Shown in pieces: positions 2,905 through 38,278 of a DNA stretch of 40,097 nt. Below the pieces are notes generated by a model. The model saw only the letters and a program-made list of their open reading frames with translations, had not been told where the DNA came from and did no database searches. Made by a program: the position numbers and the translations under genes. Source of the DNA: Minisyncoccota bacterium (GTDB taxonomy: Bacteria > Patescibacteriota > Minisyncoccia > 2-02-FULL-40-12 > GWA2-44-9); NCBI GenBank assembly GCA_018062285.1, contig JAGOSO010000006.1:1-40097 (forward strand). The letters run 5' to 3'. Numbering within the stretch: position 1 is the first letter of the stretch; every line of letters begins with the position of its first letter.

Positions 2905-4371
2905 ATGAAATATCAGCCCGTTATTGGTCTCGAAATCCATGCAGCCCTCAAAACCAAAACAAAAATGTTTTGTGATTCTTTGAATGACCCAGACGAAAAG
3001 CGTCCCAATTGGAATGTCTGCCCAATTTGTATGGGGCATCCAGGGACTATTCCAGTCATCAACCAAGAGGCGGTCCGCAAAGTAATCCTTACCGGCTTAG
3101 CTTTGAATTGTAAGATTGCTCACGATACTTTTTTTGAACGTAAGAATTATTTTTATCCTGACTTGCCAAAAGGTTATCAGATTTCTCAGTACCAGAAGCC
3201 ACTTTGTGAACATGGGGAACTGACTATTGAAGGCGGTAAAAAGATTCGCATTACTCGTATCCACTTAGAAGAAGATGCTGGTCGACTCCAGCACGATCCA
3301 TCAGGTGACTTTTCTTTGGTTGATTATAATCGGGCCTGCGTCCCGTTGATGGAGTTGGTCACTGAACCAGATTTTAATAATGGAACCGATGTCCGTTCTT
3401 TTTCAGAGGCCTATCAGATGATTTTAAAATATATTGGTGCTTCTGATGCAGACATGGAAAAGGGTTTGATGCGAGTCGAGGTTAATATCTCTTTAACTAA
3501 CGAAGACGGTTCTTATGGTACTAAAGTAGAAATTAAAAACTTAAATTCTATTACTGCCGCCGCAGCATCAGTTGATTACGAAATAGCTCGCCAGAAAGAA
3601 TTAATTGAAAGTGGGGGAGAAGTTGTGCCTGAAACTCGAGGTTGGGATGAAAATAAAAAAGCGACTTTTAGCCAGCGCACCAAAGAGGAAGCTCAGGACT
3701 ATCGTTATTTCCCAGAGCCAGATTTGCCACCTTTGCATTTTGAAGATTCTGATATCGAAGCCATCAAGACCACCATGCCAGAATTGCCTCAGGCTCGTCA
3801 TGAGCGCTTTAAAAAACAGTATGGTTTACCAGATGCTGACATAGAGATGTTTGTTGCTGACAAGGTTCTCGGCAACTTCTTTGAACACGTGGCTAGTGAA
3901 TTGATGTCTTTTGATAAGCTTGGTCATCTTGAAAGACCCGCCCCAGAACATCAAGAGAGATTATTTAAGCTGGCATCAAATTATGCGATTACAGAATTAC
4001 AGAAGCATCGTACAACTTCTGGCAGTGAAGACACAAAGATAACACCTGAGTCTTTCGCTGATCTGGTAGTTCGTGTATTCCACAAACAGATCTCATCCTC
4101 CGGTGCCCAAGCCGTGCTTGAAGAAATGTTCAAGACTGGCGCATCTCCAGAACATGTTATTAAAGAAAAAGATCTTGGCCAGGTTTCTGATGCTGGTGCC
4201 CTAGATTCAATCGTTGATGCTGTTATTGCCGCCAATCCAAAACCAGTTGAAGATTACAAGAAAGGCAAAGAGGCATCCCTTAAATTCTTAATTGGTATGG
4301 CTATGCGTGAATCCAAGGGCAAGGGGAATCCGCAGGTTCTCGAAGAGATAATTAAACAAAAGCTTTCATAA
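2905..4371 (+). CDS. gatB: Asp-tRNA(Asn)/Glu-tRNA(Gln) amidotransferase subunit B
   Basis: MKYQPVIGLEIH, FYPDLPKGYQISQ, IHLEEDAG, DYRYFPEPDLPP and C-terminal YqeY-like domain. True start is ATG 2905; the track's upstream extension overlaps tmk. Confidence 0.96.
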   Translation: MKYQPVIGLEIHAALKTKTKMFCDSLNDPDEKRPNWNVCPICMGHPGTIPVINQEAVRKVILTGLALNCKIAHDTFFERKNYFYPDLPKGYQISQYQKPLCEHGELTIEGGKKIRITRIHLEEDAGRLQHDPSGDFSLVDYNRACVPLMELVTEPDFNNGTDVRSFSEAYQMILKYIGASDADMEKGLMRVEVNISLTNEDGSYGTKVEIKNLNSITAAAASVDYEIARQKELIESGGEVVPETRGWDENKKATFSQRTKEEAQDYRYFPEPDLPPLHFEDSDIEAIKTTMPELPQARHERFKKQYGLPDADIEMFVADKVLGNFFEHVASELMSFDKLGHLERPAPEHQERLFKLASNYAITELQKHRTTSGSEDTKITPESFADLVVRVFHKQISSSGAQAVLEEMFKTGASPEHVIKEKDLGQVSDAGALDSIVDAVIAANPKPVEDYKKGKEASLKFLIGMAMRESKGKGNPQVLEEIIKQKLS

Positions 4372-5236
4372 GCTTTGTTGCACTTGTTAGATTTTTGACC
4401 CAGTGAATGTTTTTGTTTCTTTTAAACCAAGTCATTTGGCGTTTTGAGTATTGGTGGATTGCTTGATCGAGGCCGATAGTCATTTCATCTTTGGTGATTT
4501 TGTTTTGTAGATATTGGCCAACCCAGCGATACTCTAATCCTAAATCATAAAGGCGTTGCCACGATATGCCACCAGTACGAAGTTTTTTAACTTCAGCAAT
4601 CATGCCTTGTTTGATGCGGGCCGATAGGCGGGTAGAGATCCTTTTTTCTAAACCCTTTGGATTTAGGCCAAGCCACAAAACATCGTATGGTGATTCTTGT
4701 TTGATTCGTCCGACAGGTTGGCCTGTGGCAGTAATGATTTCGATCGCCCTGATTAAGCGGCGGGGATTTTTGGAATCAATGTTCCCAGATCGTTCTGGAT
4801 CGAGTTTCTGTAGTTGTTCAAATAATTGTTCCGTGGATTGTTTCTCGAGTTTCGCGCGGAGTTTGTAATTTGGTGGGACTTCCGGAAGAGAGAAGTTGTA
4901 TACAAGTGTATCAATGTATTGCCCAGTGCCGCCGACAATTATGGGCATTTTATTTTTAGAAATAATTTCTTTGATTGCTTTCTCTCCTAGTTTTTTAAAG
5001 TCAGATACGGTGAATATTTTTTTTGGGTTAGCTACGTCAATCAAATGGTGGTGGGCGAGACGCTGTTCTTTTTTGGTGACTTTGCCGGTGCCTACATCCA
5101 TCCCGCGGTATACCTGTCGGCTATCGGCTGAGATAATTTCACCTTTGAATTTTCTGGCCAACTTAATAGCTAGATCAGATTTCCCTGAGGCAGTTGGGCC
5201 AACTATGACTATAATCTTAGGATTGATTTTTGGCAT
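4352..5236 (-). CDS. miaA: tRNA dimethylallyltransferase
   Basis: GPTASGKS, IISADSRQVY, VGGTGQY, NPRRLIRAIE, YSKRQMTWF. Confidence 0.96.
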   Translation of the reverse strand: MPKINPKIIVIVGPTASGKSDLAIKLARKFKGEIISADSRQVYRGMDVGTGKVTKKEQRLAHHHLIDVANPKKIFTVSDFKKLGEKAIKEIISKNKMPIIVGGTGQYIDTLVYNFSLPEVPPNYKLRAKLEKQSTEQLFEQLQKLDPERSGNIDSKNPRRLIRAIEIITATGQPVGRIKQESPYDVLWLGLNPKGLEKRISTRLSARIKQGMIAEVKKLRTGGISWQRLYDLGLEYRWVGQYLQNKITKDEMTIGLDQAIHQYSKRQMTWFKRNKNIHWVKNLTSATKLMKAFV

Positions 5237-5243
5237 CTAATAT

Positions 5244-5272
5244 GTTATAATCTAAACCCTGGTTTTAGGCAA
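5244..5272 (-). promoter_or_regulatory. Promoter for (near-)leaderless miaA; its -10 overlaps a + strand TGtTATAAT serving the divergent ORF
   Basis: Minus strand TTGCCT (5272-5267), 17 nt, TATAAC (5249-5244), then 7 nt to ATG 5236. Confidence 0.6.
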
Positions 5273-5296
5273 GCACCTTTCAGTTCAGGAGGTCGA

Positions 5297-5854
5297 GTGT
5301 ATAAGAAGATTAGAAAGGTTGGGATTGCTCTTTTGGCCGTTAGTTTATTGGTCGGGAACACCGATATTGGCACGGCCTTTATCGTAATGTTCTTGCCTAA
5401 AGACATTTCTTTGTGGGCCCTTCTAGTCATTATCATTGTTTCGGCCAACATCCAGGCAGCTATCTGCTATAAGCTTGGCCACGACCTTGTTTCGGTGTTG
5501 GGTAGGCTGTATGGGTCTGTTTTCGAGATCCCTTATTCCGTCAGGTTCAACTGGTTGTCTCATGGTTTCAAGCGGGCTATTCTTTCGACCCTCTTTTTGT
5601 TCCATGACTGGGAAGCAACCAAGCACAGTTTTGAAAGAGTGGTCAGGTCTATTTCTGGAAGCAAGAGGTTGATGTTCGGGGCATTTTTTACCTGGCTTCT
5701 CGCTCCAGGGAGTCGCTCAATAACAGCTATCGTTCTTGGTATGTCTGAAAGATTTGGATTGTTACTGGTCCTCACCACGCTGCATGTTGTTCTCGGTTTT
5801 ATTTTCTGGGGACTTGTTTACGAAGTTGCCTCTGGTGTGACCAGCCTTTTTTAA
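5297..5854 (+). CDS. Hypothetical multi-pass membrane protein, possibly highly diverged DedA/VTT-like
   Basis: 185 aa with several hydrophobic segments; GTG start 4 nt after AGGAGG; followed by a terminator. Confidence 0.7.
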   Translation: MYKKIRKVGIALLAVSLLVGNTDIGTAFIVMFLPKDISLWALLVIIIVSANIQAAICYKLGHDLVSVLGRLYGSVFEIPYSVRFNWLSHGFKRAILSTLFLFHDWEATKHSFERVVRSISGSKRLMFGAFFTWLLAPGSRSITAIVLGMSERFGLLLVLTTLHVVLGFIFWGLVYEVASGVTSLF

Positions 5855-5860
5855 AACTAA

Positions 5861-5891
5861 GCCCCCGCATTTGCGGGGGCCGTTCTTTTTT
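5861..5891. terminator. Convergent terminator between ORF 5297 and thrS
   Basis: gcccccgca-tt-tgcgggggc with T-rich flanks on both strands. Confidence 0.8.
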
Positions 5892-5897
5892 CTGGGA

Positions 5898-7637
5898 TTA
5901 CTTTTTTAAATCTATTTCTTCTTTCAAGAGAGCGAGAGCAATATCGATCGCCATGACACCCTTGTCTCCATCTTTTCGTTTGCGGACAGCGACAGATTGA
6001 GCTTCTAGTTCTTTGTCTCCGATCACAAACAAATACGGAATCTTTTGCATTTCGGCGTTGCGGATCTTTTTGCCGAGAGTTTCGTTTTGGTCGTGGAGTT
6101 CAGCACGGATGCCGGCATGTTTTAATTTGTGAACTACAGATTCAGCAAAAGCTTTCTGGTTATCTGAGATGTTAATAACCGCAACCTGAACAGGGGCGAG
6201 CCATAATGGGAAAGCACCAGCGTAGTGTTCGATTAGGACACCCATAAATCTTTCGATTGATCCAAGTATGGCGACGTGAAGAACGGCTGGTGCGTGTTCT
6301 TGGCCATCCTCGCCAACGTAGCGCATGTTGAAGTTCTCTGGTTGGTTAAAATCAAGTTGAACGGTTGTGAGCTGCCACTTTCTGCCAATTGAATCTTTGA
6401 CCATGATGTCTATCTTTGGGCCATAGAATGCGGCTTCGCCTTCTTCGACAACATAAGGACGACCCCACTTCTTTACTGATTCAATTAAGATTTCTTCGGA
6501 CTTGCTCCAAAGAGAATCATCTCCGAAGTATTTTTCTGGGGTCTTGGGATCTCTGATTGATATCTGAACTGAATAATCAGTAAACATGAAAGTCTTATAG
6601 ACTTTGTCTAACAATCCAAGGATCATTTCAATTTCACTTTGAATTTGGTCGTGTCTTACAAAATGGTGGGTATCATCTTGGGTAAGAGCTTTAACTCTTA
6701 CAAGGCCACTAAGTTCGCCACTCTTTTCGTTTCGGTATACGGTGGTATTCTCAGCGATACGGTAGGGCAAATCACGATAGCTGTGTGGTTCAGAATTGTA
6801 TATGGCAAAGTGGTGAGGGCAGTTCATGGCTTTCATGACGAACTGGTCACCATCCTGATCAGTCATTATTGGCATCATCGCATCGTACTTACCTAAGTGG
6901 CCACTCTTTTTATAAAGCTCAGTACTGGCGATGTGGGGAATATGAACAAACTTGTAGCCGAGGTTTTCTTTTTCTTGTCTCATGAAATTACCTAATTCAT
7001 TAAAGACAGTTTCTCCTTTGGGTAAGAAAAGAGGGAGACCTGGGCCAACGAGTGGGCTAAAAGCGAATAGACCAAGCTCTTTGCCTAATTTTTTGTGATC
7101 TCTTTTTTCAGCCTCTTCCCGTTGGGTTAAATATTCTTTTAATTTATCTTTGCTCTCAAAAGCCAAGCCATAGATACGGGTGAGTTGGGGATTCTTTTCA
7201 CTGCCACGCCAGTAAGCGCCAGCCAAACGAGAAAGCTTAAATGAATTTCCTTGGATGGTGCTTGGGTCTTCAACGTGGCCACCGCGACAAAGGTCGGTAA
7301 AAGATCCTGAGGTGTATAGGGTTATTTTCTCACCAGCTTTTTCTAGGTCAGCGATAAGTTCTTCTTTGAACTGGTTGCCATTAAACATGGCGCGAGCTTC
7401 ATCAGCTGAAACTTCTTTGCCCTCAAAACTTTTCCAAGCCTTTAAGAGTTCACGCATCTTATCTTCTATGACAGGTAAATCAGTATCAGAAAGTTTTCCC
7501 TTAACATCAATGTCGTAATAGAAGCCATCTTCGATGGCAGGACCAATGGCTAATTTTGAGCCAGGATACAAATCCAAAACAGCTGCTCCTAGCAAGTGGG
7601 CCAACGAGTGCCTAACGTGTTCGATTGAGTTTTTCAT
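5898..7637 (-). CDS. thrS: Threonyl-tRNA synthetase (short form without N-terminal TGS domain)
   Basis: Editing motifs HSLAHLL and DLCRGGH, RDHKKLG, MNCPHH, AFYGPKID, GSIERF, and anticodon-binding domain. Confidence 0.97.
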   Translation of the reverse strand: MKNSIEHVRHSLAHLLGAAVLDLYPGSKLAIGPAIEDGFYYDIDVKGKLSDTDLPVIEDKMRELLKAWKSFEGKEVSADEARAMFNGNQFKEELIADLEKAGEKITLYTSGSFTDLCRGGHVEDPSTIQGNSFKLSRLAGAYWRGSEKNPQLTRIYGLAFESKDKLKEYLTQREEAEKRDHKKLGKELGLFAFSPLVGPGLPLFLPKGETVFNELGNFMRQEKENLGYKFVHIPHIASTELYKKSGHLGKYDAMMPIMTDQDGDQFVMKAMNCPHHFAIYNSEPHSYRDLPYRIAENTTVYRNEKSGELSGLVRVKALTQDDTHHFVRHDQIQSEIEMILGLLDKVYKTFMFTDYSVQISIRDPKTPEKYFGDDSLWSKSEEILIESVKKWGRPYVVEEGEAAFYGPKIDIMVKDSIGRKWQLTTVQLDFNQPENFNMRYVGEDGQEHAPAVLHVAILGSIERFMGVLIEHYAGAFPLWLAPVQVAVINISDNQKAFAESVVHKLKHAGIRAELHDQNETLGKKIRNAEMQKIPYLFVIGDKELEAQSVAVRKRKDGDKGVMAIDIALALLKEEIDLKK

Positions 7638-7672
7638 ATGTTTTTATTTGATTAAGGATAGCAGTATTAAGA

Positions 7673-7715
7673 GTAAAAATAAAGACGCCCTGTCTCGTCT
7701 TTGAGAGGGCGTCTT
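7673..7715 (-). terminator. Attenuator terminator in the thrS leader
   Basis: Minus strand AAGACGCCCT (7715-7706) pairs with AGGGCGTCTT (7691-7682) as a 10-bp stem, followed by TATTTTT. Confidence 0.85.
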
Positions 7716-7733
7716 GGAGCACAATCTTTATGT

Positions 7734-7805
7734 TTATGCGCCAACAGACCCTCTCAAAGAAGGGGTGGTTGTGCATGTAGTTGAGAATAAACGAGAAATA
7801 GTCAT
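7734..7805 (-). CDS. Thr-rich leader peptide MTISRLFSTTCTTTPSLRGSVGA (23 aa)
   Basis: Read by hand: ATG 7805 to TAA 7736-7734. Six Thr codons, five of them in ACT ACA TGC ACA ACC ACC. Overlaps the antiterminator strand. Confidence 0.85.
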   Translation of the reverse strand: MTISRLFSTTCTTTPSLRGSVGA

Positions 7806-7814
7806 CGTGTAGTT

Positions 7815-7843
7815 ATTCTACTAAAAACAGAGACTGCTTACAA
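7815..7843 (-). promoter_or_regulatory. Promoter of the thrS leader
   Basis: TTGTAA (7843-7838), 17 nt, TAGAAT (7820-7815), then 9 nt to the leader ATG. Confidence 0.7.
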
Positions 7844-7851
7844 ATGTTTAA

Positions 7852-10800
7852 CTAAGCGAGGGTTGCGACGTGGCGAGCATCGTCACAGAGGAGTTTTGCG
7901 AGGCCGTCTTTGTCGTTAACTTTCCCAGCAACAACGATGATTGCATTTTCTTTAAATATCTCGGGATACTTTTCAAGAATGGTAGGGAAGACAACGACTT
8001 CAATCTTTGAAGTTAGGTCTTCGATCCACGCAAAGAGCATTGGTTTACCGGTCTTTGTGATTATCTTTTGAACTTTAGTTACAATTCCACCGATCTTTAT
8101 TGGGCCAGACATCTTAGGACGAACTTCTTTGATGGTGATGGTTTTTTCCAACTTCATGTTCTTGGCGTATTCATGGAGTGGGTGGGCAGAAACAAACAGA
8201 CCAAGCAATTCTTTTTCCCACATTAGTTTTTCGGAATTTTTTGCGGCCGTTGCAGAGATTAATTTTAATGAAGGCAAAACACTCATGTCGTTGCCAAACA
8301 AACTGGCCTGGCTCATGCCCTGACTCTTTTGGATATCGTGGGCATAAGTGAGAAGATTCTCGATGTTCATCAAAAGGAGGTTTCTCTCGCCAAATGAATC
8401 AAGGGCCCCACATTTAATTAAGGCTTCCATTGATTTCTTGTTGAGGTCTTTGTTTTTGACACGAGTAACAAAGTTTTCGATATCGGTGAATGGACCATTA
8501 TCTTTGCGTTCGGCAATGATAGCATTGGCGATGTTTTCGCCTAAGTTTTTGATAGTTAGTAAACCGAAACGAATTTGGTCTTTTCCTGTCGGGCTATTTT
8601 TGCCTTTGATGACAGTAAAATCTTTGTAAGAACTATTTATTTCTGGTGGTAAAACAGGAATCTTCATCTTCTGACATTCTTCGATAACTTGAGCCACGCG
8701 TTCAGTGTCACCAGATTCAGCAGTGAGAATGGCGCACATATATTCAGCTGAGTAGTGAGCCTTCATGTAGGCTGTTTGGTAAGCGACGCGGCCATAGCAG
8801 GCAGCATGAGCTTTGTTGAAACCGTAACCTTGGAATGGTTCGAATAAATTCCAAATCTCTTCAGCTTGTTGAGCGGTCATGCCTGAGTGGCTCTGGCAAC
8901 CTTCTACGAAAATAACATGTTGCTTGGCCATTTCTGCTGGAATTTTTTTACCAACAGCTTTGCGGAATTTATCGACTGATTCCCAGTTGTAGCCGGCGAG
9001 TTCCATGGCCGTGAACAATAGGTCGTCTTGGTATACGAGAATGCCGTAGGACTTAGCTAAGAATTTTTCTGCTTTCGGATGGAAGTAAGTGATGCGACTG
9101 CGACCCTGTTTGCGGGCAATGTATTCAGGGATGTTGTTGATTGGTCCTGGGCGGTACAAGGCAACCATAGCGTTGATATCATAGATGGTAGTTGGTTTCA
9201 GCTCCATTAGGTATTTAGTCATGCCCGCTGAACCGCCGAGCTGGAAGACGCCTTCAGTTCCACCAGAAGCTAACATTGCAAATGTTTTCTTGTCATCAAA
9301 AGGAATTTTTTCAATATCAATATCGATGTTTTGGTGGATTTTAACCAAGCGCACAGCATTTTCGAGAATGGCCAAGTTTCTGATTCCAAGAACGTCGAGT
9401 TTTAGCAAGCCAACGCCGTCTTCGCCCACAGTGTACATGTCGTACTGGGTGATTAAGTGTGTGCCTTCTTTTGGATCAAACTGAATCGGTACGTACTCTA
9501 CTAATGGTTTTGGAGAAATAACGACACCTGCAGCGTGAACAGAAACATGGCGAACGGTGCCTTCTAATTTTTTAGCGATATCGATAATGTGGTGAGCCTC
9601 AGAATCTTGTTCGTAAGCCTTCTTTAATTCCGGCTCAAGTTCCATGGCTCGATCAATCGTCATCGGGAAACCCTGTGAGCCCATTGGGATTAACTTAGCC
9701 AAGCGATCACCAGTTTCATATGATTTCCCAAGAGCTCGAGCTACGTCACGAACAGAGCCACGGGCCAACATTGTTCCAAAAGTACCGATTTGAGCAACTT
9801 TATCTTCTCCATATTTCTTTTTGGCATACTCAACAATTTCTTGGCGGCGGTTGTCGGCAAAGTCCATGTCGATATCGGGAGCAGATGGACGGAAAGGATT
9901 TAAGAATCTTTCAAACGGGAGAAGAAATTCAATCGGGTCAACACTGGTAATGCGTGATAGATAAGCAACAAAAGAACCAGCGGCCGAACCTCTAACGGTT
10001 GTGTAGATTTGATTTTGATGGGCGAAGTTGAGCAAGTCAGCAACTACCAAAAAGTAGGGTGAGTAACCCTTGTTTTTAATAATCTCCAATTCATATTTGC
10101 GGCGTTCTTCGGCCTCGGCATTGTTTTCCATTCCGCGTTCAATCATGCCTTTTTTGGTTAGGTCATCGAGCATTTCATCTGCTGTCTTGCCTGGTTCGAG
10201 AGGGAAGTCTGGGAAAATAAATTTGCCGAGAGTCAAATCAACATTGCAACGATCGGCAACAAGTTGAGTGTTGGTGACAGCTTCTGGAATATCTTTAAAT
10301 TTTTCAACCGCTTCTTCTGTTGAGAGGAAGTGATATTCTCCTTGGCCAGAAAACAAAGCAGGGTCACTAACGTCGGTGTGGGTAGAGATAGCAACCAGTG
10401 TCTTGTGGGCTTCGGCATCTTCCTTTCTTAAATAATGGGAGTCTTGGGTTGCGACAAGGGGGATATTAAATTTCTTAGAAAATCCGACAATGGTATCTTT
10501 CCAGTCCTCATAAAATTCCACGTCTGGGTGGTTCATGATTTCCAGATAGTAATTGTCCTTTCCAAAAATTGATTGGTACTCAAGAACAATCTCTTCAGCC
10601 TTTTCTTTGTCACCGTGTTGGATGGCTCTGCCTAGTTCACTCCCTGGGCACCCAGAAAGACAGATAACCCCTTCAGCATGTTTGCGAAGTAGTTCTTTGT
10701 CGACACGTGGTTTGTAGTAATAACCCTCAGTGTGGGCGATCGTGGTGAGTTTGATGAGGTTCTGGTAACCGGTATTGTTCTCAGCAAGCAAAGTTAGGTG

Positions 10801-12908: not shown

Positions 12909-13304
12909 ATGTTGATTATGCGCTTACAACGTATCGGGAAGAAGGGCCAGGCCTATTTCCGTATCATAGTTACCGAACACACCAAGAAGCCACAGGGCGA
13001 ATACTTGGAGCTTTTGGGTTCGTATGATCCACACAAGAAAGACCTCAAAATCAAGAAAGAACGCCTCGAACACTGGATGTCTAAGGGTGTCCAAATGTCC
13101 CCAACCGTTAATAATTTGCTTGTAAATAATAAGATCATCACTTTTGCCAAGAAGCTCAGCTGGAAACCAAAGGTTGGTTCCAAGCCAGCTCCTGCTCCTG
13201 TTGCTCCAAAGCCTAAAGCTGAAGCAGCCCCAACTCCTGAGGCCGCCCCAGAACCAGTTGCCGAAGCCGCTCCCGAAGCTCCAGCCGAAACACCAGCAGA
13301 ATAA
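12909..13304 (+). CDS. rpsP: 30S ribosomal protein S16 with Pro/Ala/Glu-rich tail
   Basis: IMRLQRIGKK, YFRIIV, LGSYDP, WMSKGVQMS. Confidence 0.93.
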   Translation: MLIMRLQRIGKKGQAYFRIIVTEHTKKPQGEYLELLGSYDPHKKDLKIKKERLEHWMSKGVQMSPTVNNLLVNNKIITFAKKLSWKPKVGSKPAPAPVAPKPKAEAAPTPEAAPEPVAEAAPEAPAETPAE

Positions 13305-14013: not shown

Positions 14014-14538
14014 ATGAATCAATCATTATTTTTGACTATAAATGGCTGGGCTGGTCACCGTGTTTGGCTAGATGCTTTGATGTATTTTTGTGCCGAGTAT
14101 TTAATGTATGTCATGATTTTGGCAGTGGTTGTTTATGTGATTATTGATTATAAACGCTGGCGCGATATGGCCATTGTTTCTGTTGGCTCAGCCCTAGTGG
14201 CCCGCTTTGTTGTGGCTTCCGGTATTAGAATGTTTTATTACCATGCCCGTCCTTATTGGGTCCTCGCCCAGACCCACATGCTGATTACTCCAGAGAAGAC
14301 TAGTTCTTTCCCTTCCGGTCACACAATTTTTGTTTTCTCTTTGGCCATGGCCGTTTATCAGTATAATAAAAAGGTTGGCAACTGGTTTTTTCTAGCCGCA
14401 ATCTTGGTTGGATTTTCTCGTATCTTTGCCGGTGCTCACTGGCCCTACGACATTGTTGCCGGTGCGGTCCTTGGCGTTTTGACTGCTATTGTTTGTGTTT
14501 GGGGATTTAAAAAATATGTAATCAAAGCCGTGAGATAA
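14014..14538 (+). CDS. PAP2 membrane phosphatase, likely undecaprenyl-diphosphatase (BcrC-like)
   Basis: RP, SFPSGH and SRIFAGAHWPYD motifs. Confidence 0.85.
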   Translation: MNQSLFLTINGWAGHRVWLDALMYFCAEYLMYVMILAVVVYVIIDYKRWRDMAIVSVGSALVARFVVASGIRMFYYHARPYWVLAQTHMLITPEKTSSFPSGHTIFVFSLAMAVYQYNKKVGNWFFLAAILVGFSRIFAGAHWPYDIVAGAVLGVLTAIVCVWGFKKYVIKAVR

Positions 14539-15428
14539 TGGTTAATTCAGAAAAACCATCACTGCCAGGTAATTCTCCAGAAGATGAGAAAAAACCAACT
14601 CGACAGCAAAGAGACATTTCTGATTTTAAAGAATTTGTTAGGTTGAATCTGGATACAGTCAAATATTCATTTAAGGCAGAGGATGATATCTATTGGAAAT
14701 TTTATTCGCATAGTGGGGATAGTCAGATAGACCCAAATTCGGATGAAGCGGTTTCTATTAAGAGTGATTACGCCAGGGATTTAAAAGTTGCGGCTGATAC
14801 TCTCGGTCCTTCTTCATCTGGTAAGGTAAATATTAAGGAAGATCATTATTGGTTCCATGTCATCACCAACAAAGGTTTTGATAGTCGCGAAATTGGCGGA
14901 AGGATTTACTTTAATGTGGACATAAGTGCCGCCCCAACTTTTATGGGCAACCTTGCTCTCGCTTTGGCCGCTAAAGGAGTTAATTGTCATATTAAGTTGC
15001 CTCAATCTTCTAAGGCCATAGAATGTGTCTCTAGGGCGGATAAAATCGTATTGTATTTTAACCAGAGCCAAGAGGCTGAGGTTTTGGCTGTTGTTGAAAA
15101 TGAACATAGTCTCTACTCGGATAAATTTACTGATGTTACACCAAGATTTACCAGTGTCCTCAAGGATTCAAACGGTGCATTAATGGAAGGTGTTGCTTTT
15201 GGGGAAGAGCGAAGTGGTTGGTCTTTCGGTGAACTTCGTAGCCGAGCTTTGGTCGGAGTTCTATTTAGCGCCAAAAGTAAAGGCTTAACAATTTTTGATT
15301 CTAGCTTCAATTTTGAGGAAGAATTGCGTGAATCTTTTGAGCATCTTGGTATTGACCCTCAGAATCCTAGCTTTAATAAAAGTGAGACGGATGAGTTTAA
15401 GCTTATAAAGCAAAGGATTGCTGATTAA
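14538..15428 (+). CDS. Hypothetical protein resembling the HopA1 effector / phosphothreonine-lyase-fold family
   Basis: Motif order GRIYFN, HIKL, RADKIVLYF, TPRFT, GVAFGEE, SFGELRSRAL, recognised by eye. Confidence 0.55.
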   Translation: MVNSEKPSLPGNSPEDEKKPTRQQRDISDFKEFVRLNLDTVKYSFKAEDDIYWKFYSHSGDSQIDPNSDEAVSIKSDYARDLKVAADTLGPSSSGKVNIKEDHYWFHVITNKGFDSREIGGRIYFNVDISAAPTFMGNLALALAAKGVNCHIKLPQSSKAIECVSRADKIVLYFNQSQEAEVLAVVENEHSLYSDKFTDVTPRFTSVLKDSNGALMEGVAFGEERSGWSFGELRSRALVGVLFSAKSKGLTIFDSSFNFEEELRESFEHLGIDPQNPSFNKSETDEFKLIKQRIAD

Positions 15429-15430
15429 AC

Positions 15431-15478
15431 CACCATAAACAAAAAGTCCTCTGGTCAGAGGACTTTTTGTTTATGGTG
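15431..15478. terminator. Convergent terminator between ORF 14538 and tRNA-Leu
   Basis: 22-nt perfect inverted repeat caccataaacaaaaagtcctct-ggtc-agaggactttttgtttatggtg. Confidence 0.85.
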
Positions 15479-15557
15479 CCCGAGGTGGGACTTGAACCCA
15501 CAAGCCTTGCGGCACACGATTTTGAGTCGTGCGTGTATGCCATTCCACCACTCGGGC
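15474..15557 (-). tRNA. tRNA-Leu(CAA)
   Basis: GCCCGAG acceptor stem, anticodon loop CT-CAA-AA, long variable arm, GGTTCAAGTCC, encoded CCA. Confidence 0.95.
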
Positions 15558-17342: not shown

Positions 17343-17372
17343 AAAAAAAGACGCCCTACTTTCGTAGGGCGT
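17343..17372 (-). terminator. Terminator overlapping the rmlC stop
   Basis: Minus strand acgccctac-gaaa-gtagggcgt followed by c and T7. Confidence 0.75.
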
Positions 17373-17931
17373 TCATGTTGGGGAGACTGTCCTTGCTGAG
17401 ATTCCTCAACCAGGGCATGTCTGCGTCCTGTTTGGAAAGGATCGGTCGCCATGGTGATGGGGGCCACGTGATTCCGATATCAGGGTCATTCCACCGGACG
17501 CCGCATTGGTCCTTGGTTCCGCTGTAGTATTCGTCGCAGGTGTATTCGACGTCAGCTTTTTTGGAAAGAACCAGAAACCCGTGAGCGAATCCAGCAGGGA
17601 TGTAGATGGAGAAGTTTGATTCAGAAGAAAGCTCGACCACGGCGTGCTTCTTGAAACTCGGCGAATTGGGCCGAACATCAACGACAACATCCATGATTTT
17701 GCCTCGGATCACTCGTACCACTTTGGCTTGAGGTTTCTGTCGTTGGAAGTGAAGTCCTCGCAAAACGTTCCGGGATGATCGTGAACGGTTGATCTGCACG
17801 ACATTGTGTTTGATGCCGAGACGAAGCATTTCTTTTTGATTGAAAGCTTCGTAGAACACACCACGAGTATCGTGGTGTGTTCTGGGGCACAGAATAAATA
17901 CTCCGGGCAATTTCGTCTCCACCTTTTCCAT
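17356..17931 (-). CDS. rfbC: dTDP-4-dehydrorhamnose 3,5-epimerase
   Basis: DTRGVF, SSRNVLRGLHFQ, DVRPNSP, PAGFAHGF, WNDPDIGITWP. Start ATG 17931, 4 nt after GGAGAG. Confidence 0.92.
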   Translation of the reverse strand: MEKVETKLPGVFILCPRTHHDTRGVFYEAFNQKEMLRLGIKHNVVQINRSRSSRNVLRGLHFQRQKPQAKVVRVIRGKIMDVVVDVRPNSPSFKKHAVVELSSESNFSIYIPAGFAHGFLVLSKKADVEYTCDEYYSGTKDQCGVRWNDPDIGITWPPSPWRPILSKQDADMPWLRNLSKDSLPNMNALRK

Positions 17932-17993
17932 AACACTCTCCAATCGAGTTCAGAATATACCACAGAAGGACTATTGATAACAACAATTACCTA

Positions 17994-18022
17994 TTGACTT
18001 TCTATAAAAATAGGAGTATAAT
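17994..18022 (+). promoter_or_regulatory. Near-consensus sigma70 promoter for the small membrane ORF
   Basis: TTGACT (17994-17999), 17 nt, TATAAT (18017-18022). Confidence 0.75.
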
Positions 18023-18070
18023 ATAAAGACGAGCTTAGTTTTAACAACCTATTTGGCACGGAGGTGCCTG

Positions 18071-18292
18071 ATGAAGAAGAAAGCGGTTGTCCTAGCCATC
18101 CTGATTTTCTGGGTCTGGCTGGGATACCATGACAAGATCTGTGTGTTCCCGCACCCAGAGAACCATATCAGCAACACCTTCCTGTTTTTTATCGCGGTGT
18201 TGCCGATATGGTTTTTTGTGGGACACTTCTTTCTCTTTGCTATATCGTTTTTGATCCTGGCCACAATGTGGTTGTCAGGACTGAAACAGTGA
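18071..18292 (+). CDS. Small hydrophobic hypothetical protein (73 aa)
   Basis: GGAGGTG (18060-18066) 4 nt before ATG; two or three hydrophobic segments; own promoter and terminator. Confidence 0.65.
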   Translation: MKKKAVVLAILIFWVWLGYHDKICVFPHPENHISNTFLFFIAVLPIWFFVGHFFLFAISFLILATMWLSGLKQ

Positions 18293-18313
18293 GAAAGAGT
18301 GGTCAGACGGCGT

Positions 18314-18347
18314 CCGCCATCGTTGTTACGGTGGCGGCTCTTTTATT
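18314..18347 (+). terminator. Terminator after the small ORF, convergent with the topA operon
   Basis: ccgccatcgt-tgtt-acggtggcgg followed by ctcttttatt. Confidence 0.7.
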
Positions 18348-18636
18348 CCGCTGAAGAGAACTTTTTGGTGTTCTTGCACTTCGGGAAATTGGAGCAGGCT
18401 TTGAACTTTCCAAATTGGCCGGTACGGATGAGGAAGTGGCCAGTGTTGCATTTGTCGCAGATCTCATCAGTCTCGACTGGTTTCTCGGCGCCTGCAGCAG
18501 GCGTCTTTTTTTCTATGTATTTGCAGTTGGGATAATTTGAGCAAGCGGTGAAGTTGCCAAATCGGCCAGACTTAACGGCGAGGTGACCAACATTACATTC
18601 AGGACAAGTTTTACCAGCGTTTCCTTGGTTTAACAT
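18343..18636 (-). CDS. Stand-alone topoisomerase C4 zinc-ribbon repeat protein (YrdD-like)
   Basis: Two repeats, CPEC..GRFG.F.ACSNYPNC and CDKC..GQFGKF.ACSNFPKC. Confidence 0.85.
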   Translation of the reverse strand: MLNQGNAGKTCPECNVGHLAVKSGRFGNFTACSNYPNCKYIEKKTPAAGAEKPVETDEICDKCNTGHFLIRTGQFGKFKACSNFPKCKNTKKFSSAE

Positions 18637-18646
18637 TTTTGTTTAT

Positions 18647-31545: not shown

Positions 31546-34173
31546 ATGCCCCCTTCTACCCGAATGCCATTTGGGGCCATATTCGATGTTAAGCCGGTGG
31601 ATGATTCCGGCTCTCTTGATTTTGACAAAATCAACTCCGTCCAACCAACGGTTAATTTGTCGTCTTTCCGTCCTAAAAAATTAATTAGAAATCAAAAACC
31701 AGCTTCAGTTTCAGCTCAGAAATCTTATTCTGCCGTGCTTCCTCAGGCCCAAGAATTACCGCCAGTGATTGGTTTGCCATCAAAACAAGATATTAAAGAC
31801 CAATTCGACGAATTGATGAGCCATGATTTAGATCTTGGTGTTGAGTTGGCCAAAGTTTCCATGGGGGGCAAGGGCATAGAAACGAGTCGGGCAATAAGAT
31901 TGAGTCGCCCAAGATTTAAAATAGCCCAAAGCAATATTCCTGAGTTGGCCAAGCCCGAAGAAGAGGATTTGTATGCCCCAATTATTTCTAGCATACATCA
32001 CTCAGCGACAATAATTTCTAGGGAAGAATACGAAAAACCAGTAGAGCCTGTTGCCGAAGAGGTCTCGATATATCAAGAAAATAATTTGCCTGCAGAACTA
32101 TCCGAATCTGCTGAGTTGGATGTGCGTGCTTTATTTTACAGCCCCGCTCCAGCCGTATCGGTTTTACCTGTTATGTCCACTGCTCCTAAGATGGACTTTA
32201 AGACCAGGGTCATATCGACACCTAAAATTAAAAAAACTTTTAAGTGGCCCAAGATAGTAATTCCCAAAAGGTATCTTTTGCTAATAGGCGCAATCATTAT
32301 TGCTTCTGGGATAGTGACTCGCTATGCTTTAGGTATTAAAAAACAAATTGTGCAACAGAGTTCAGAAGCTGTTGCAAATCTCCAGACGGCACAGGAGGAT
32401 TTAAAGGCTTTAGATTTTGGTAATGCCTCTCAGGATTTCTTTTCGGCTTACGCTAATTTTTCCAAGGCGGGCGATAGTCTTAATTTGTTTGGTGCGGGTA
32501 TTACAAACATTATTGCTTCTCTTCCTGGTGGAAGCTCTTTGAAATCAGCCAAGAATTTGGTTCAGGTCGGACAATTACTTTCATCTGTCGGCACATCAAT
32601 GACTTCAGCCCTTAATGCTGTTTCAAAAACTGGGGCTTTGTCTAATCCCACAAACCCTCAGTTGCCAGTTGGTCCAATCGTCGGAGCCTTAAAGAAAGCT
32701 CTTCTTGCGTCAAAGCAACAAGTTGCTCAAGCAAGCTCTTTGATGGCTGACATTGATAGTAGTATTATCCCAGCCGATAAACAGGATGGTTTTAACGATT
32801 TAAAAATAAAGTTGCCTGAAATTGAAAGAGGGGTAAATATGAGTGCAGATTATGCTAAATTTTTTGATAACTTAATTAATTCCCCAGGCTATCATCGGTA
32901 TTTGGTGATGTTCCAAAATGGTTCAGAATTAAGACCAACCGGGGGATTCCCTGGAACTTACGGAGTCGTGGGTTTCAAAGATGGTTTGCTCGATAGTTTC
33001 TTTGTTGACGATGTCTACAATATAGATGGCCAACTAAAAGAAAATATAATTCCACCAATCCAAATGCAGCACATTACCCCAAATTGGGGCATGCGTGATG
33101 CTAACTGGTATGTAGATTTTTCTGCTTCTGCAAAAAATATAGAGAAATTTTATAAAAAAGAAGCTGACCTTAAAATTGATGGAGTTATTGTTGTGAACCC
33201 AGAAATGATTGCTAAGATTTTAGATATTGTTGGCCCCGTGGAAATGACTCAGTACAATCTAACACTTAACGCCAAGAATGTTTTGACGACTATCCAAAGC
33301 CAGGTGGAGTATGGCGCTAATCGTGTTCAGCCAAAACAGATTGTTAAAGATTTTGCCCCATTATTACTATCAAAGATTTACAGCGCCGGTTCCGATAAGT
33401 GGATACAAATTTTTGATACCGTAATTCAAAGCATGAATCAGAAAAATGTTTTGATGAGTTTTAACGATTTGTCTTTGGAAAGTTTTGTGACCGACAAGGG
33501 TTTTGGTGGCCAAGTCCACCAAGGAGACGCTGATTATCTAATGGCTACCCTCACCAATATTAAAGGCTCAAAGACTGACGCAGTTACTGACACTTCCATG
33601 ACCGTCGATACTACATTCGACAATACAACAGCAATTCACACATTAACCATTACACGTAAGCACAATGGTGGGGGAGAGAAATATGGTTTTTATAATAAAC
33701 AAAATCCGTCCTATGCTCGTGTCTTGGTCCCAGATGGGTCTGAGTTGATTTCTGTGTCTGGTAATGACCAACCAAATTTTAAACCATTGATAAATTATGC
33801 TGGCTCTAATTTTGTGAGAGATGAAACTTTGGTTAAGTTTGAAGCTAGCGGCAAGACAGACCCCGTAACTGGCGTAACAACTTATCACGAATCTGGAAAA
33901 ACAGAGTTTGGTTTCTGGTTAATCACAGACCCTGGCAAAACCAAAACAGTATCCATTCAGTATCGTGTTCCAAAAGCTTTAACCGGCAAGACATATCAGT
34001 TGTATATTCAAAAGCAGCCAGCCCTAAAGGTTAAAAGCTTTACCTTCTCAATGCAGAAGCCAGAAGGCTTAACTCCTGACGCTTCTGCTCCTTTGTTAAC
34101 CCAGAAAGATTCTTCATATAGTTATTCCGCTCCTCTTGAAAACGACTTAACCGTTAAGGTTAATTTTAAGTAG
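31546..34173 (+). CDS. DUF4012 domain membrane-anchored protein
   Basis: About 240-aa low-complexity N-terminus, single TM, helical region, then YLVMFQN.SELRPTGGF, RDANW..DF, DGVIVVNP, N..G.K.D. Confidence 0.8.
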   Translation: MPPSTRMPFGAIFDVKPVDDSGSLDFDKINSVQPTVNLSSFRPKKLIRNQKPASVSAQKSYSAVLPQAQELPPVIGLPSKQDIKDQFDELMSHDLDLGVELAKVSMGGKGIETSRAIRLSRPRFKIAQSNIPELAKPEEEDLYAPIISSIHHSATIISREEYEKPVEPVAEEVSIYQENNLPAELSESAELDVRALFYSPAPAVSVLPVMSTAPKMDFKTRVISTPKIKKTFKWPKIVIPKRYLLLIGAIIIASGIVTRYALGIKKQIVQQSSEAVANLQTAQEDLKALDFGNASQDFFSAYANFSKAGDSLNLFGAGITNIIASLPGGSSLKSAKNLVQVGQLLSSVGTSMTSALNAVSKTGALSNPTNPQLPVGPIVGALKKALLASKQQVAQASSLMADIDSSIIPADKQDGFNDLKIKLPEIERGVNMSADYAKFFDNLINSPGYHRYLVMFQNGSELRPTGGFPGTYGVVGFKDGLLDSFFVDDVYNIDGQLKENIIPPIQMQHITPNWGMRDANWYVDFSASAKNIEKFYKKEADLKIDGVIVVNPEMIAKILDIVGPVEMTQYNLTLNAKNVLTTIQSQVEYGANRVQPKQIVKDFAPLLLSKIYSAGSDKWIQIFDTVIQSMNQKNVLMSFNDLSLESFVTDKGFGGQVHQGDADYLMATLTNIKGSKTDAVTDTSMTVDTTFDNTTAIHTLTITRKHNGGGEKYGFYNKQNPSYARVLVPDGSELISVSGNDQPNFKPLINYAGSNFVRDETLVKFEASGKTDPVTGVTTYHESGKTEFGFWLITDPGKTKTVSIQYRVPKALTGKTYQLYIQKQPALKVKSFTFSMQKPEGLTPDASAPLLTQKDSSYSYSAPLENDLTVKVNFK

Positions 34174-35551: not shown

Positions 35552-36013
35552 ATGAGCCCAGAAAGAAACTTATTTGATGACCCAGAGCCAGTAACCACAA
35601 CGGATCACAATCCTGATCCAGACGTTTGGCGTCATCACCCAGCGATGCCAACTCGGCCTGATGTTTTACCAAAATCTTCTAGAGGGACCCACTCCAATCC
35701 TGGGGTCGTGGCAGAAGAATTGCCTGAGCGTGGGGATAGACCAGAAGAAATCCCCAAACCTGACAGTCTAAATACTGGTTGGGTAGAAAATTTCCCAGAG
35801 TTGTTCGATTTGAATACTGGTCATTTGATTTATGGAATTATTGAGGCGTATGCTGATTATCAGAAATCAAAAATCTCTGACGACCAAAAAGGAATCGATG
35901 CCTTCCATAAGTTTGTCCAAGAATATTTGGGTGGCGGCAGAATTGGTTCTGTGGTCCATCATTTCTTGAAATGTAAACATTGTAGAGACCTTCGTGATGG
36001 AAAAACGCCTTAA
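35552..36013 (+). CDS. Hypothetical protein with C-terminal HxxxCxxC
   Basis: 153-aa ORF behind TGgTATAAT (35529-35537); Pro/acidic N-terminus. Confidence 0.65.
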   Translation: MSPERNLFDDPEPVTTTDHNPDPDVWRHHPAMPTRPDVLPKSSRGTHSNPGVVAEELPERGDRPEEIPKPDSLNTGWVENFPELFDLNTGHLIYGIIEAYADYQKSKISDDQKGIDAFHKFVQEYLGGGRIGSVVHHFLKCKHCRDLRDGKTP

Positions 36014-37878: not shown

Positions 37879-37960
37879 TCTCACACCTTTCCTGAGGTTG
37901 TTTGCTGTTTAAAAATTGACTAGAGAGTGTTCCTGGTGATAGTATCGTTTCGAGGTGACC

Positions 37961-38278
37961 TTGGCTGTTATTGCCCCTTCTCGTAAGAAATTCAGTTTTG
38001 TTCAGAGTTCGGTGGCTGAGAGATCGGCGGAGATCCAGAAGCATATCGATAGGATTGTCGGCGAGGCATTTTCTGGTCTTCAGCGCCACGCTCGTTTCGC
38101 CCGAGTTGTCAGGTTTGCTTTTAGCCTGTCATTCTTTGTGGGTATCAACGACAAGGGTGCAATTGCTCATGCCGTTGAGGTGTATCGAGCTCTTGGTTGG
38201 ACCGTCGACTATTCCATCTCGGGTTCTAATTGTGAGATGAAGTTGAGGTCGAAAGTACTCAAATCTAACGGTGGCTAA
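37961..38278 (+). CDS. Hypothetical protein (about 105 aa)
   Basis: TTGACT-18-TAGTAT promoter, GAGGTG before TTG 37961 (GTG 37955 is an alternative start), terminator downstream. Confidence 0.6.
   Translation: MAVIAPSRKKFSFVQSSVAERSAEIQKHIDRIVGEAFSGLQRHARFARVVRFAFSLSFFVGINDKGAIAHAVEVYRALGWTVDYSISGSNCEMKLRSKVLKSNGG

Follow-up and report, generated by a model that had tools for sequence, protein, structure and literature searches.

A stand-alone HopA1-family protein that shares its fold and main catalytic residues with phosphoserine/phosphothreonine lyases, encoded in a patescibacterial genome

The HopA1 gene and its variable slot

The gene studied here encodes a protein of 296 amino acids and lies between a PAP2-superfamily gene and a tRNA-Leu gene in a 40,097-nucleotide stretch of DNA (the window) from a Patescibacteria/Parcubacteria bacterium of lake water and wastewater. 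The features of the locus and of the encoded protein are as follows:

14014..14538, plus strand: PAP2-superfamily gene, undecaprenyl-diphosphatase-like (Pfam PAP2, E=2.7e-19)
14503..15475, no strand: lineage-specific segment, the variable slot with the HopA1 gene (blastn against the relatives L033 and L034, no DNA match)
14538..15428, plus strand: HopA1-family ORF, 296 aa, ATG start, TAA stop codon inside the span (from the ORF list)
14538..14600, plus strand: N-terminal tail, aa 1-21, Pro/Ser/Glu/Lys-rich, of low model confidence and not conserved
14601..14852, plus strand: aa 22-105, helices of the N-terminal part, with conservation across the clade (F..F motif, Y52xxFY), inside the structural match to HopA1
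14853..15371, plus strand: Pfam HopA1 domain, aa 106-278, an alpha/beta lyase-like core (profile positions 11-169 of 170)
14901..14903, plus strand: R122 codon (in GRIYFN), aligned with LxmY R189
14994..14996, plus strand: K153 codon (in IKL), predicted catalytic base, aligned with LxmY K221 (the Lys of 'HAKVL')
15033..15056, plus strand: R166-A-D168-K-I-V-L-Y173, aligned with LxmY 'PRRDAVVLYL'
15222..15239, plus strand: S229-F-G-E-L-R234 motif, LxmY counterpart 'SFGQHR'
15431..15478, no strand: perfect 23-nt inverted repeat (repeat search), overlapping the encoded CCA end of the tRNA
15474..15557, minus strand: tRNA-Leu, anticodon CAA (ARAGORN), convergent with the HopA1-family ORF

The TAA stop codon of the PAP2 gene shares one base with the ATG of the HopA1 gene (TAATG), and the two genes are probably co-transcribed, though only by virtue of their position. 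The PAP2 protein resembles undecaprenyl-diphosphatase models, its scores against NCBIfam SepP and PRK11837 lying under the cut-offs. On the other side, 45 nt separate the HopA1 stop codon from the facing 3' end of the tRNA-Leu gene, and the perfect inverted repeat between them (RNA fold of -29.3 kcal/mol, z=-8.7) is likely to be a bidirectional terminator. Elsewhere the window contains envelope genes (glycosyltransferases, MurJ).

The HopA1 gene is a strain-specific accessory gene, which marks a variable slot flanked by the undecaprenyl-PP phosphatase gene and by tRNA-Leu. It is missing from the syntenic slot of three close relatives, whose TopA proteins are 88-92% identical to that of the present genome; blastn homology ends at position 14502 and restarts at 15466 (L033) or 15476 (L034). 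The same tRNA-Leu is found in both of these relatives, and the PAP2 gene is kept in L034, the non-homologous BacA being present instead in L033 and L037. In the relatives, Fic or RelA/SpoT genes occupy a neighboring variable slot. As the slot lacks HopA1 in these genomes, the PAP2 coupling is local rather than conserved. A sequence-only reading of this DNA had described the ORF as translationally coupled to PAP2, and the overlap does exist here, but the association is absent both from the relatives and from all 24 related loci considered below; the same reading had rightly placed the ORF against a tRNA 3' end and taken the source to be a CPR bacterium. The inserted segment has no flanking att-like direct repeats and hardly stands out in GC content (0.39-0.41 versus about 0.42-0.44); a recent integration event is not demonstrable. 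Four metagenome runs contain nearly identical copies of the gene, differing by two synonymous changes and one non-synonymous change, and metatranscriptomes yielded a few short identical contigs, too weak a signal for a claim of expression.

Family, fold and predicted active site

At E<=1 the ORF protein has a single Pfam match, HopA1 (PF17914), and none to the OspF/SpvC family. The HopA1 match covers model positions 11-169 of 170 and scores 59 bits (E=7e-16), the cut-off being 22.7. The match far exceeds chance, and the same model recognizes 123 of 124 homologues. NCBIfam gave no match for the protein, and PADLOC gave no defense-system match for it or for most of the fused homologues tested (see below), one PP2C fusion having two marginal matches (E ~1e-3). 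The AlphaFold2 model of the protein (pLDDT 93.6, pTM 0.90) contains helices at residues 22-36, 46-56 and 69-89. Its best Foldseek matches in the PDB are the structures of HopA1 from Pseudomonas syringae (4RSX, E=1.6e-10; 4RSW, E=4.9e-10), with TM scores of 0.59/0.67 over 293 columns for 4RSX and of 0.57-0.67 over the two structures. These are followed by the LxmY lyase of LxmKY (~1e-9), the lyase domains of LanKC proteins (5e-5 to 1e-3) and, more weakly, SpvC (1.5e-3) and OspF (3e-3), with no unrelated PDB structure under E=0.2. A viral structure library produced only weak giant-virus matches with high rmsd. At the sequence level, neither the protein nor the clade profile A3 retrieved HopA1, LxmY or SpvC from the PDB, where LxmY was reached by the broader profile A2 alone (see below), and hhalign of A3 against SpvC of pSLT detected no similarity (probability 0.1).

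The family assignment and the kinship with OspF/SpvC and the lanthipeptide lyase domains, both of which the sequence-only reading had proposed, are borne out by the Pfam profile and by AlphaFold2 with Foldseek, and the six motifs it quoted are all present in the order given (RIYFN at aa 122, IKL at 152, RADKIVLYF at 166, TPRF at 201, GVAFGEE at 218 and SFGELR at 229). The disordered Pro/Ser/Glu-rich N-terminus that it described is also present (pLDDT 62-75 over the first two 10-residue blocks), but only ~21 aa are unstructured; homologue matches begin at about aa 16-24.

Across 124-150 homologues with 22-37% identity, R122, Y124, K153, R166, D168, Y173, S229, F230 and R234 are near-invariant, as are Y52 and F174, and more than 90% of the sequences retain the putative base Lys together with its Arg/Tyr partners. 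Near-invariance of Lys, Arg and Tyr residues despite such low identity is what one expects of an active site under constraint. In the alignment of the clade profile A2 with LxmY (9DK1_B, E=0.0018), R122, K153, R166 and Y173 pair with R189, K221, R231 and Y238, whose spacing equals that of R187, K219, R229 and Y236 in CaoY. The four CaoY residues correspond to K104, K136, R148 and Y158 of SpvC, and the R187A and K219A substitutions in CaoY abolish lyase activity/elimination (PMC9486802). The mapping of the ORF protein onto SpvC is transitive via LxmY and CaoY, joining a weak profile alignment (E=0.0018) to a published secondary-structure alignment; by this route K136 and Y158 of SpvC correspond to K153 and Y173, K104 corresponds to Arg122, and only one pocket Arg (R166) is mapped. 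As far as can be judged by sequence, the protein accordingly has the LanY catalytic set of Arg, Lys, Arg and Tyr (R122, K153, R166, Y173). Of the catalytic set, for which the sequence-only reading proposed to look as Lys/His/Arg, the Lys/Arg/Tyr part is present, whereas the acid His106 of SpvC/OspF is missing and near-invariant Tyr124 aligns with its position; LanY enzymes likewise lack the SpvC-type His (PMC9486802). Overall, it is confirmed that the gene product belongs to the HopA1 family and has both the fold and the key catalytic residues found in pSer/pThr phospho-lyases.

The known systems that share this fold differ from the ORF protein in several respects. P. syringae HopA1 (HrmA/HopPsyA), the founder of PF17914, belongs to the same Pfam family and its structural match spans nearly the whole chain, comprising both the N-terminal helices and the alpha/beta core, but it is only 17% identical in sequence. 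It is an effector of a plant pathogen, whereas the ORF protein comes from a CPR bacterium of fresh water/wastewater, at whose locus none of the type III delivery features of HopA1 (T3SS, ShcA-type chaperone gene, long secretion/chaperone-binding N-terminus) is found. The LanY lyases from the pathways to class V lanthipeptides and thioamitides (CaoY; LxmY, 9DK1-3; TvaD/ThoD) have in common with it the Pfam family, the R/K/R/Y spacing and the SFGxxR motif, but their structural overlap is confined to the core (~195 residues), and their adjacent genes for precursor, tailoring enzymes and the APH-like LanK, with which LanY forms a heterodimer, have no counterparts in the window or among the recurrent neighbors at 24 loci of its clade. 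The OspF/SpvC/HopAI1 phosphothreonine lyases are related in fold, with the base Lys and the Tyr equivalent by published alignment, but show no sequence or profile similarity, and the positions of SpvC K104 and H106 are Arg and Tyr in the ORF protein. [quoted passage not shown]

The patescibacterial clade, its domain fusions and its gene neighborhoods

Relatives were gathered by exhaustive phmmer, word-indexed searches having given 1 (with the protein) and 4 (with a 21-sequence profile). They form a divergent clade of ~180 clusters at 50% identity around the ORF protein, and among 1.84 billion cluster representatives no relative exceeds 37% identity to it. Within reference genomes the clade was found almost exclusively in Patescibacteria. 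Many of its members have at the N-terminus either FHA, a domain that binds phosphothreonine, or the phosphatase domain PP2C: FHA was found in 16 of 124 homologues and PP2C in 3-5 of them, with further FHA fusions among the related loci. The FHA-fused proteins P0007, P0012, P0018 and P0020, in which FHA was recognized by the N-terminal sequence, are among the closest matches, and the PP2C fusions have PP2C at the N-terminus and HopA1 at the C-terminus. The ORF protein itself has neither domain; their presence in its sisters also sets the clade apart from P. syringae HopA1. In some cases the homologue is part of a giant protein (1,400-3,160 aa) without any other recognizable domain. The FHA and PP2C fusions suggest that the clade belongs to Ser/Thr phospho-signaling and not to peptide natural-product synthesis. 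In the library searched, no paper was found to link HopA1 with FHA domains or, among the results listed, with the CPR, and the supplements of a Patescibacteria genetics paper contain neither HopA1 nor FHA entries.

The 40-kb window has no gene for an APH/LanK kinase, Pkinase, Ser/Thr kinase, RiPP precursor, cyclase or transporter, and none for a secretion system, T3SS included. We also sampled 24 related loci via a degenerate DNA motif for [N/S]RxDK[M/I]V-x-YF, a sample that is biased toward part of the clade. In these loci the genes lie among housekeeping genes, with no recurrent APH, Hanks kinase or RiPP neighbor, no chaperone or secretion neighbor, and a PAP2 neighbor in none. The distant family member P0152 is found in a cluster with APH, Nif11-precursor, radical-SAM and C39-ABC transporter genes. 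The ORF protein and 147 of 151 family members are devoid of signal-peptide-like or TM-like hydrophobic segments. The earlier remark that no T3SS is visible holds for the 40 kb, but its inference of a secreted effector from the N-terminus is not supported, the tail being short, a signal peptide or TM segment being absent and the window having no secretion genes.

Candidate functions

Its sequence and structural model suggest that the ORF protein is probably a stand-alone pSer/pThr beta-elimination lyase that acts on phosphoproteins or peptides. As a soluble, stand-alone HopA1-family protein, it would represent the minimal catalytic module of a mainly patescibacterial clade. In the predicted mechanism K153 would take the C-alpha proton from the substrate, R122 would polarize the substrate carbonyl, and R166, probably along with R234, Y124 and Y173, would bind the departing phosphate and supply it with a proton; dehydroalanine or dehydrobutyrine would be the product. 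A phosphosite turned into one of these residues could never be re-phosphorylated. That elimination takes place, and that the substrate is a protein, is what we infer, and the targets might be either phosphoproteins of the bacterium itself or those of a host cell. LanY-type lyases are soluble and active only when bound to a kinase partner, for which the ORF protein shows no equivalent. Nor is any Ser/Thr kinase that might supply it with phosphorylated substrate visible in the 40 kb.

A host-directed role, in which an epibiont would deliver the lyase into its host cell and thereby irreversibly inactivate phospho-Ser/Thr signaling proteins, appears unlikely, although several observations favor it. 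OspF, SpvC and HopAI1 inactivate phospho-signaling proteins in eukaryotic hosts, and the top two structural matches of the ORF protein are type III effectors. The source is a Patescibacterium, and cultivated members of this group are described as obligate epibionts. A strain-specific gene that occupies a variable slot beside the 3' end of a tRNA gene and lacks any relative above 37% identity fits a conflict gene; the Fic or RelA/SpoT genes in the neighboring slot and the giant homologues point in the same direction. Against this role stand the absence of signal peptides and TM segments from the ORF protein and nearly all of its family, the window free of secretion-system genes, the brevity of the unstructured N-terminal stretch and the housekeeping surroundings of the clade genes, with neither chaperone nor secretion neighbors. 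Moreover, FHA and PP2C partners typify intracellular bacterial signaling.

It is improbable that the protein is a non-catalytic pseudo-enzyme, whose HopA1 fold would only bind phosphoproteins or another partner without elimination chemistry. Such a role would accord with the missing His acid of SpvC and with the literature on P. syringae HopA1, which is described as an EDS1-targeting, kinase-interacting effector and for which we found no demonstration of lyase activity. However, the strong retention of the putative base Lys and of Arg/Tyr across highly divergent sequences, and the need for the equivalent residues in CaoY catalysis (PMC9486802), argue for an enzyme.

We give very little credence to a LanY-type RiPP dehydratase subunit, which would join an APH-like kinase from another locus in dehydrating Ser/Thr of a precursor as in class V lanthipeptides and thioamitides. 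The Pfam family and R/K/R/Y residues in common with CaoY and LxmY, the rank of LxmY among the top structural matches and the biosynthetic cluster of P0152 are consistent with it. Nevertheless, the window encodes no APH/LanK, precursor, cyclase or transporter and none recurs at the 24 loci; the clade is remote from LanY, as seen from the failure of A3 to match any such PDB entry and the E-value of only 0.0018 with A2; the LxmY structural match covers ~195 columns as opposed to 293 for HopA1; and FHA/PP2C fusions are ill-suited to RiPP enzymes. A functional partnership with the PAP2 phosphatase, for instance in envelope synthesis with a lipid-linked or small-molecule phosphoester as the substrate, is suggested by the one-base overlap and by the glycosyltransferases and MurJ of the window, but is extremely improbable and already weakened by synteny, given that relatives have PAP2 or BacA without HopA1, that no PAP2 lies beside the 24 other clade members and that, to our knowledge, every characterized enzyme of this fold acts on peptide-bound pSer/pThr.

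Phospho-Ser/Thr lyases have so far been encountered in two settings, namely the inactivation of eukaryotic MAP kinases by type III effectors and the work of lanthipeptide-type dehydratases. Read as a probable phospho-lyase, the present gene points to a third, that is, a mainly patescibacterial clade with no kinase or peptide partner and with repeated FHA/PP2C fusions. We tentatively raise the possibility that Patescibacteria have a protein phospho-lyase clade of their own, whose members are often guided by FHA or paired with PP2C and would irreversibly erase Ser/Thr phosphorylation either as an endogenous 'permanent eraser' or as epibiont effectors directed against bacterial host signaling. 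If true, either role would for the first time take this chemistry beyond eukaryote-aimed type III effectors and peptide natural-product synthesis. Should the chemistry be confirmed, these small, soluble, kinase-independent lyases might also serve as tools to install dehydro-amino acids at phosphosites, and the family would provide bacterial Ser/Thr signaling with an irreversible 'eraser', or the interaction of epibiont and host with a candidate effector.

Family membership and putative active site

The sequence-only reading had placed a HopA1-like ORF beside a tRNA, and both its coordinates and its six sequence motifs proved exact, the latter in the order given (residues 122, 152, 166, 201, 218 and 229). 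The features of the immediate surroundings are:

14014-14538, upstream of the HopA1 ORF: PAP2-superfamily ORF, undecaprenyl-diphosphatase-like (profile searches)
14538-15428, + strand: HopA1-family ORF, ATG to TAA, 296 aa (ORF list)
15431-15478, between the HopA1 ORF and tRNA-Leu: perfect 23-nt inverted repeat (repeat search and RNA folding)
15474-15557, - strand: tRNA-Leu(CAA), its 3' end facing the HopA1 ORF, as earlier noted

The sole Pfam family recovered for the ORF is HopA1 (PF17914), matched over aa 106-278 with E = 7e-16 (hmmscan; 59 bits versus a gathering score of 22.7); NCBIfam held no matching model, and sequence searches of PDB returned no match. An AlphaFold2 model built from a 124-sequence alignment is very confident (mean pLDDT 93.6, pTM 0.90), with low certainty limited to the first ~20 residues, and in a fold search with this model unrelated folds appear only at E > 0.2. 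The profile match and the fold search together bear out the family and fold relatives proposed in the sequence-only reading. The protein is a bona fide member of the Pfam HopA1 family, and this annotation is straightforward. It is also very divergent: when 1.84 billion cluster representatives were searched exhaustively with phmmer, 180 homologue clusters came up at E <= 1e-3, the best being only 33-37% identical.

Nearly invariant across 124-150 homologues are R122, Y124, K153, R166, D168, Y173, F174, P202, G218, S229, F230 and R234. A profile of the clade aligned with the LanY-type lyase LxmY (9DK1_B) at E = 0.0018, pairing R122/K153/R166/D168/Y173 with R189/K221/R231/D233/Y238, and SFGELR of the window protein with SFGQHR. 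The paired LxmY residues are spaced like R187/K219/R229/Y236 of CaoY, another LanY-type lyase, in which R187A and K219A abolish elimination and whose four residues were equated by the authors with K104/K136/R148/Y158 of the phosphothreonine lyase SpvC (PMC9486802). The Lys/His/Arg catalytic set that the sequence-only reading named as a check was only partly recovered: Lys153, Arg122 and Arg166 align to LxmY, but the acid His106 of SpvC has no equivalent, its place being taken by the near-invariant Tyr124, two residues past the Arg. The LanY enzymes likewise lack an SpvC-type His106. Comparison of the clade profile with the SpvC sequence using hhalign found no similarity, and by sequence the window protein is not a member of the OspF/SpvC family. 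The conserved, aligned residues provide good but indirect support for a predicted β-elimination chemistry, and a non-catalytic role is unlikely.

A variable slot at the tRNA-Leu 3' end

In close relatives, whose TopA is 88-92% identical, the contigs share the order NusB, RNase III, S16, TsaC, undecaprenyl-PP phosphatase, tRNA-Leu, ParA, ParB and TopA, and none of them contains a HopA1 gene. The slot is empty in L033, where BacA replaces PAP2 and the tRNA is inverted, and is occupied by a LAGLIDADG-like ORF in L034 and two small ORFs in L037. As DNA similarity to the relatives ends at 14502 and restarts at 15466-15476, the HopA1 gene is an insertion specific to this lineage, and the slot it occupies at the tRNA 3' end is variable. 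Neither direct repeats in its flanks nor a clear compositional shift were found. The suggested coupling to PAP2 holds to the extent that the TAA stop and the HopA1 ATG overlap by one base (TAATG). However, the relatives' syntenic slot lacks HopA1, marking the overlap as a local accident of position, and PAP2 is absent from the recurrent families listed for 24 clade loci; a PAP2-linked role is therefore unlikely.

The inverted repeat (-29.3 kcal/mol, z = -8.7) is likely a bidirectional terminator. It runs into the CCA end of tRNA-Leu, which is encoded in the genome, so the left arm of the repeat opens with the mirrored tRNA 3' end (CACCA).

Other variation was noted in these contigs. The LAGLIDADG/homing-endonuclease-like ORF of L034 (18029-18640, 203 aa, weak Pfam hits) directly follows the tRNA-Leu 3' end. 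PAP2 in the window and L034 (18705-19229) and the non-homologous BacA/UppP in L033 (15628-16383) and L037 (15157-15912) occupy the same position, which looks like non-orthologous gene displacement within one genus-level group. The tRNA-Leu(CAA) of L033 (15495-15578) is inverted relative to the window and L034, with collinear flanking genes. A second variable slot lies between ParB and TopA (window 17356-18640, L033 12585-13673, L034 13213-15469), and holds RmlC (dTDP-4-dehydrorhamnose epimerase) in the window, with GC raised to 0.49-0.52 versus ~0.42 around, a Fic-domain gene in L033, and a RelA/SpoT-family gene in L034, L036 and L037. Just downstream of topA, a separate 97-aa ORF of Topo-I-type zinc ribbons (18343-18636, - strand) matches L033 and L034 DNA and resembles a C-terminal module of TopA that has been split off; separate Zn_ribbon_Top1 ORFs of 86-94 aa adjoin topA in L033 and L034, and likewise in L037.

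Domain architectures, neighborhoods and distribution

A Pfam scan of 124 homologues detected HopA1 in 123, FHA in 16 and PP2C in 3-5, with additional FHA fusions among long proteins and genome or metagenome loci. In nearly all cases the HopA1 module lies at the C-terminus, a median of 4 aa following it, with FHA or PP2C placed N-terminal to it, and TM-like hydrophobic segments occur in only 4 of 151 proteins. The window protein is a bare catalytic module, and its closest relatives include P0007, P0012, P0018 and P0020, with FHA-type N-terminal sequences. As FHA domains are phosphothreonine readers and PP2C dephosphorylates pSer/pThr, these architectures tie the clade to Ser/Thr phosphoproteins. 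By eye, P0003, P0005, P0011, P0017 and P0022, which are among the closest homologues, share a conserved N-terminal region of ~200 aa without Pfam match (e.g. motif RAVKLL), which may be a further targeting domain of the clade. HopA1 is the sole recognisable Pfam domain of several giant members (P0120, 3160 aa; P0141, 2142 aa; P0061, 1814 aa; P0080, 1542 aa; and 3112-7998 of the related locus L031), one giant being encoded in a Gammaproteobacteria MAG, and in P0130 there are two stretches of HopA1.

Of the loci found by scanning with a degenerate motif, 12 in GTDB genomes and 20 in metagenomes truly belong to the clade. Patescibacteria MAGs account for 11 of the 12 GTDB matches, a sample biased by the scan motif, and the matches include Saccharibacteria, Moraniibacteriota, Magasanikiibacteriota, Peregrinibacteria, Falkowbacteria and others. 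Neighbors at 24 scanned loci are unrelated housekeeping genes, with no recurrent family except the fused FHA. Window TopA shares 88% identity with a protein labelled 'Patescibacteria group bacterium' and 74-79% with Parcubacteria, Paceibacterota and Giovannonibacteria proteins. Window DNA is present in lake-water, wastewater and freshwater metagenomes, and the HopA1 gene is intact and nearly identical in four metagenome runs (two synonymous and one conservative change). A few contigs of 136-190 nt, 100% identical to its 3' half (15034-15451), occur in metatranscriptome runs X21, X23 and X27, labelled plant and freshwater metagenome; no contigs from the adjacent PAP2 gene were found. These could reflect transcription or contaminating DNA, and are a hint of transcription, no more.

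All window ORFs of at least 100 aa (40 kb) were scanned, and are of housekeeping or envelope type (GyrB, NusG, L11, Tmk, GatB, MiaA, ThrRS, DnaE, NusB, RNase III, S16, TsaC, ParA/ParB, RmlC, TopA, DprA, glycosyltransferases, TIM, PGK, MurJ and LepA). Kinases, precursor peptides and secretion genes are absent from this set, in keeping with the earlier remark that no T3SS is visible. An 875-aa DUF4012 protein (31546-34173) lies beside the glycosyltransferase/MurJ genes, S16 (12909-13304) carries an Ala/Pro/Glu-rich C-terminal tail of ~50 aa, and three ORFs (5297-5854, 35552-36013 and 37955-38278; 185, 153 and 107 aa) lack Pfam matches.

Probable function

The best-supported mechanism, which we consider somewhat probable, is that of a stand-alone pSer/pThr β-elimination lyase acting on phosphoproteins or phosphopeptides. 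Its targets might belong to a host cell, a conflict role favored by the accessory status and extreme divergence of the gene and by the epibiotic lifestyle of cultivated Patescibacteria; alternatively, they might be endogenous, as favored by the lack of an export signal and of secretion genes and by the FHA/PP2C architectures of relatives. A LanY-type RiPP role is unlikely, given that the window lacks a kinase and precursor peptide and that neither APH nor Pkinase is among the recurrent families listed for the 24 loci; in contrast, a distant family member, P0152, lies in a textbook RiPP cluster, where the other genes encode an APH, a radical-SAM enzyme, Nif11 precursors and an exporter of the C39-ABC type.

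The protein lacks the context that defines each of the three known functional classes: HopA1 effectors have a T3SS and chaperone and LanY enzymes a LanK and precursor, whereas the window locus has none of these, and the protein is not a kinase-cyclase fusion like LanKC/LanL. In the searchable library no literature linking HopA1 with FHA domains was found, and none of the Patescibacteria papers listed there mentions HopA1. The link of the clade to FHA and PP2C, together with its concentration in CPR bacteria, represents a testable lead.
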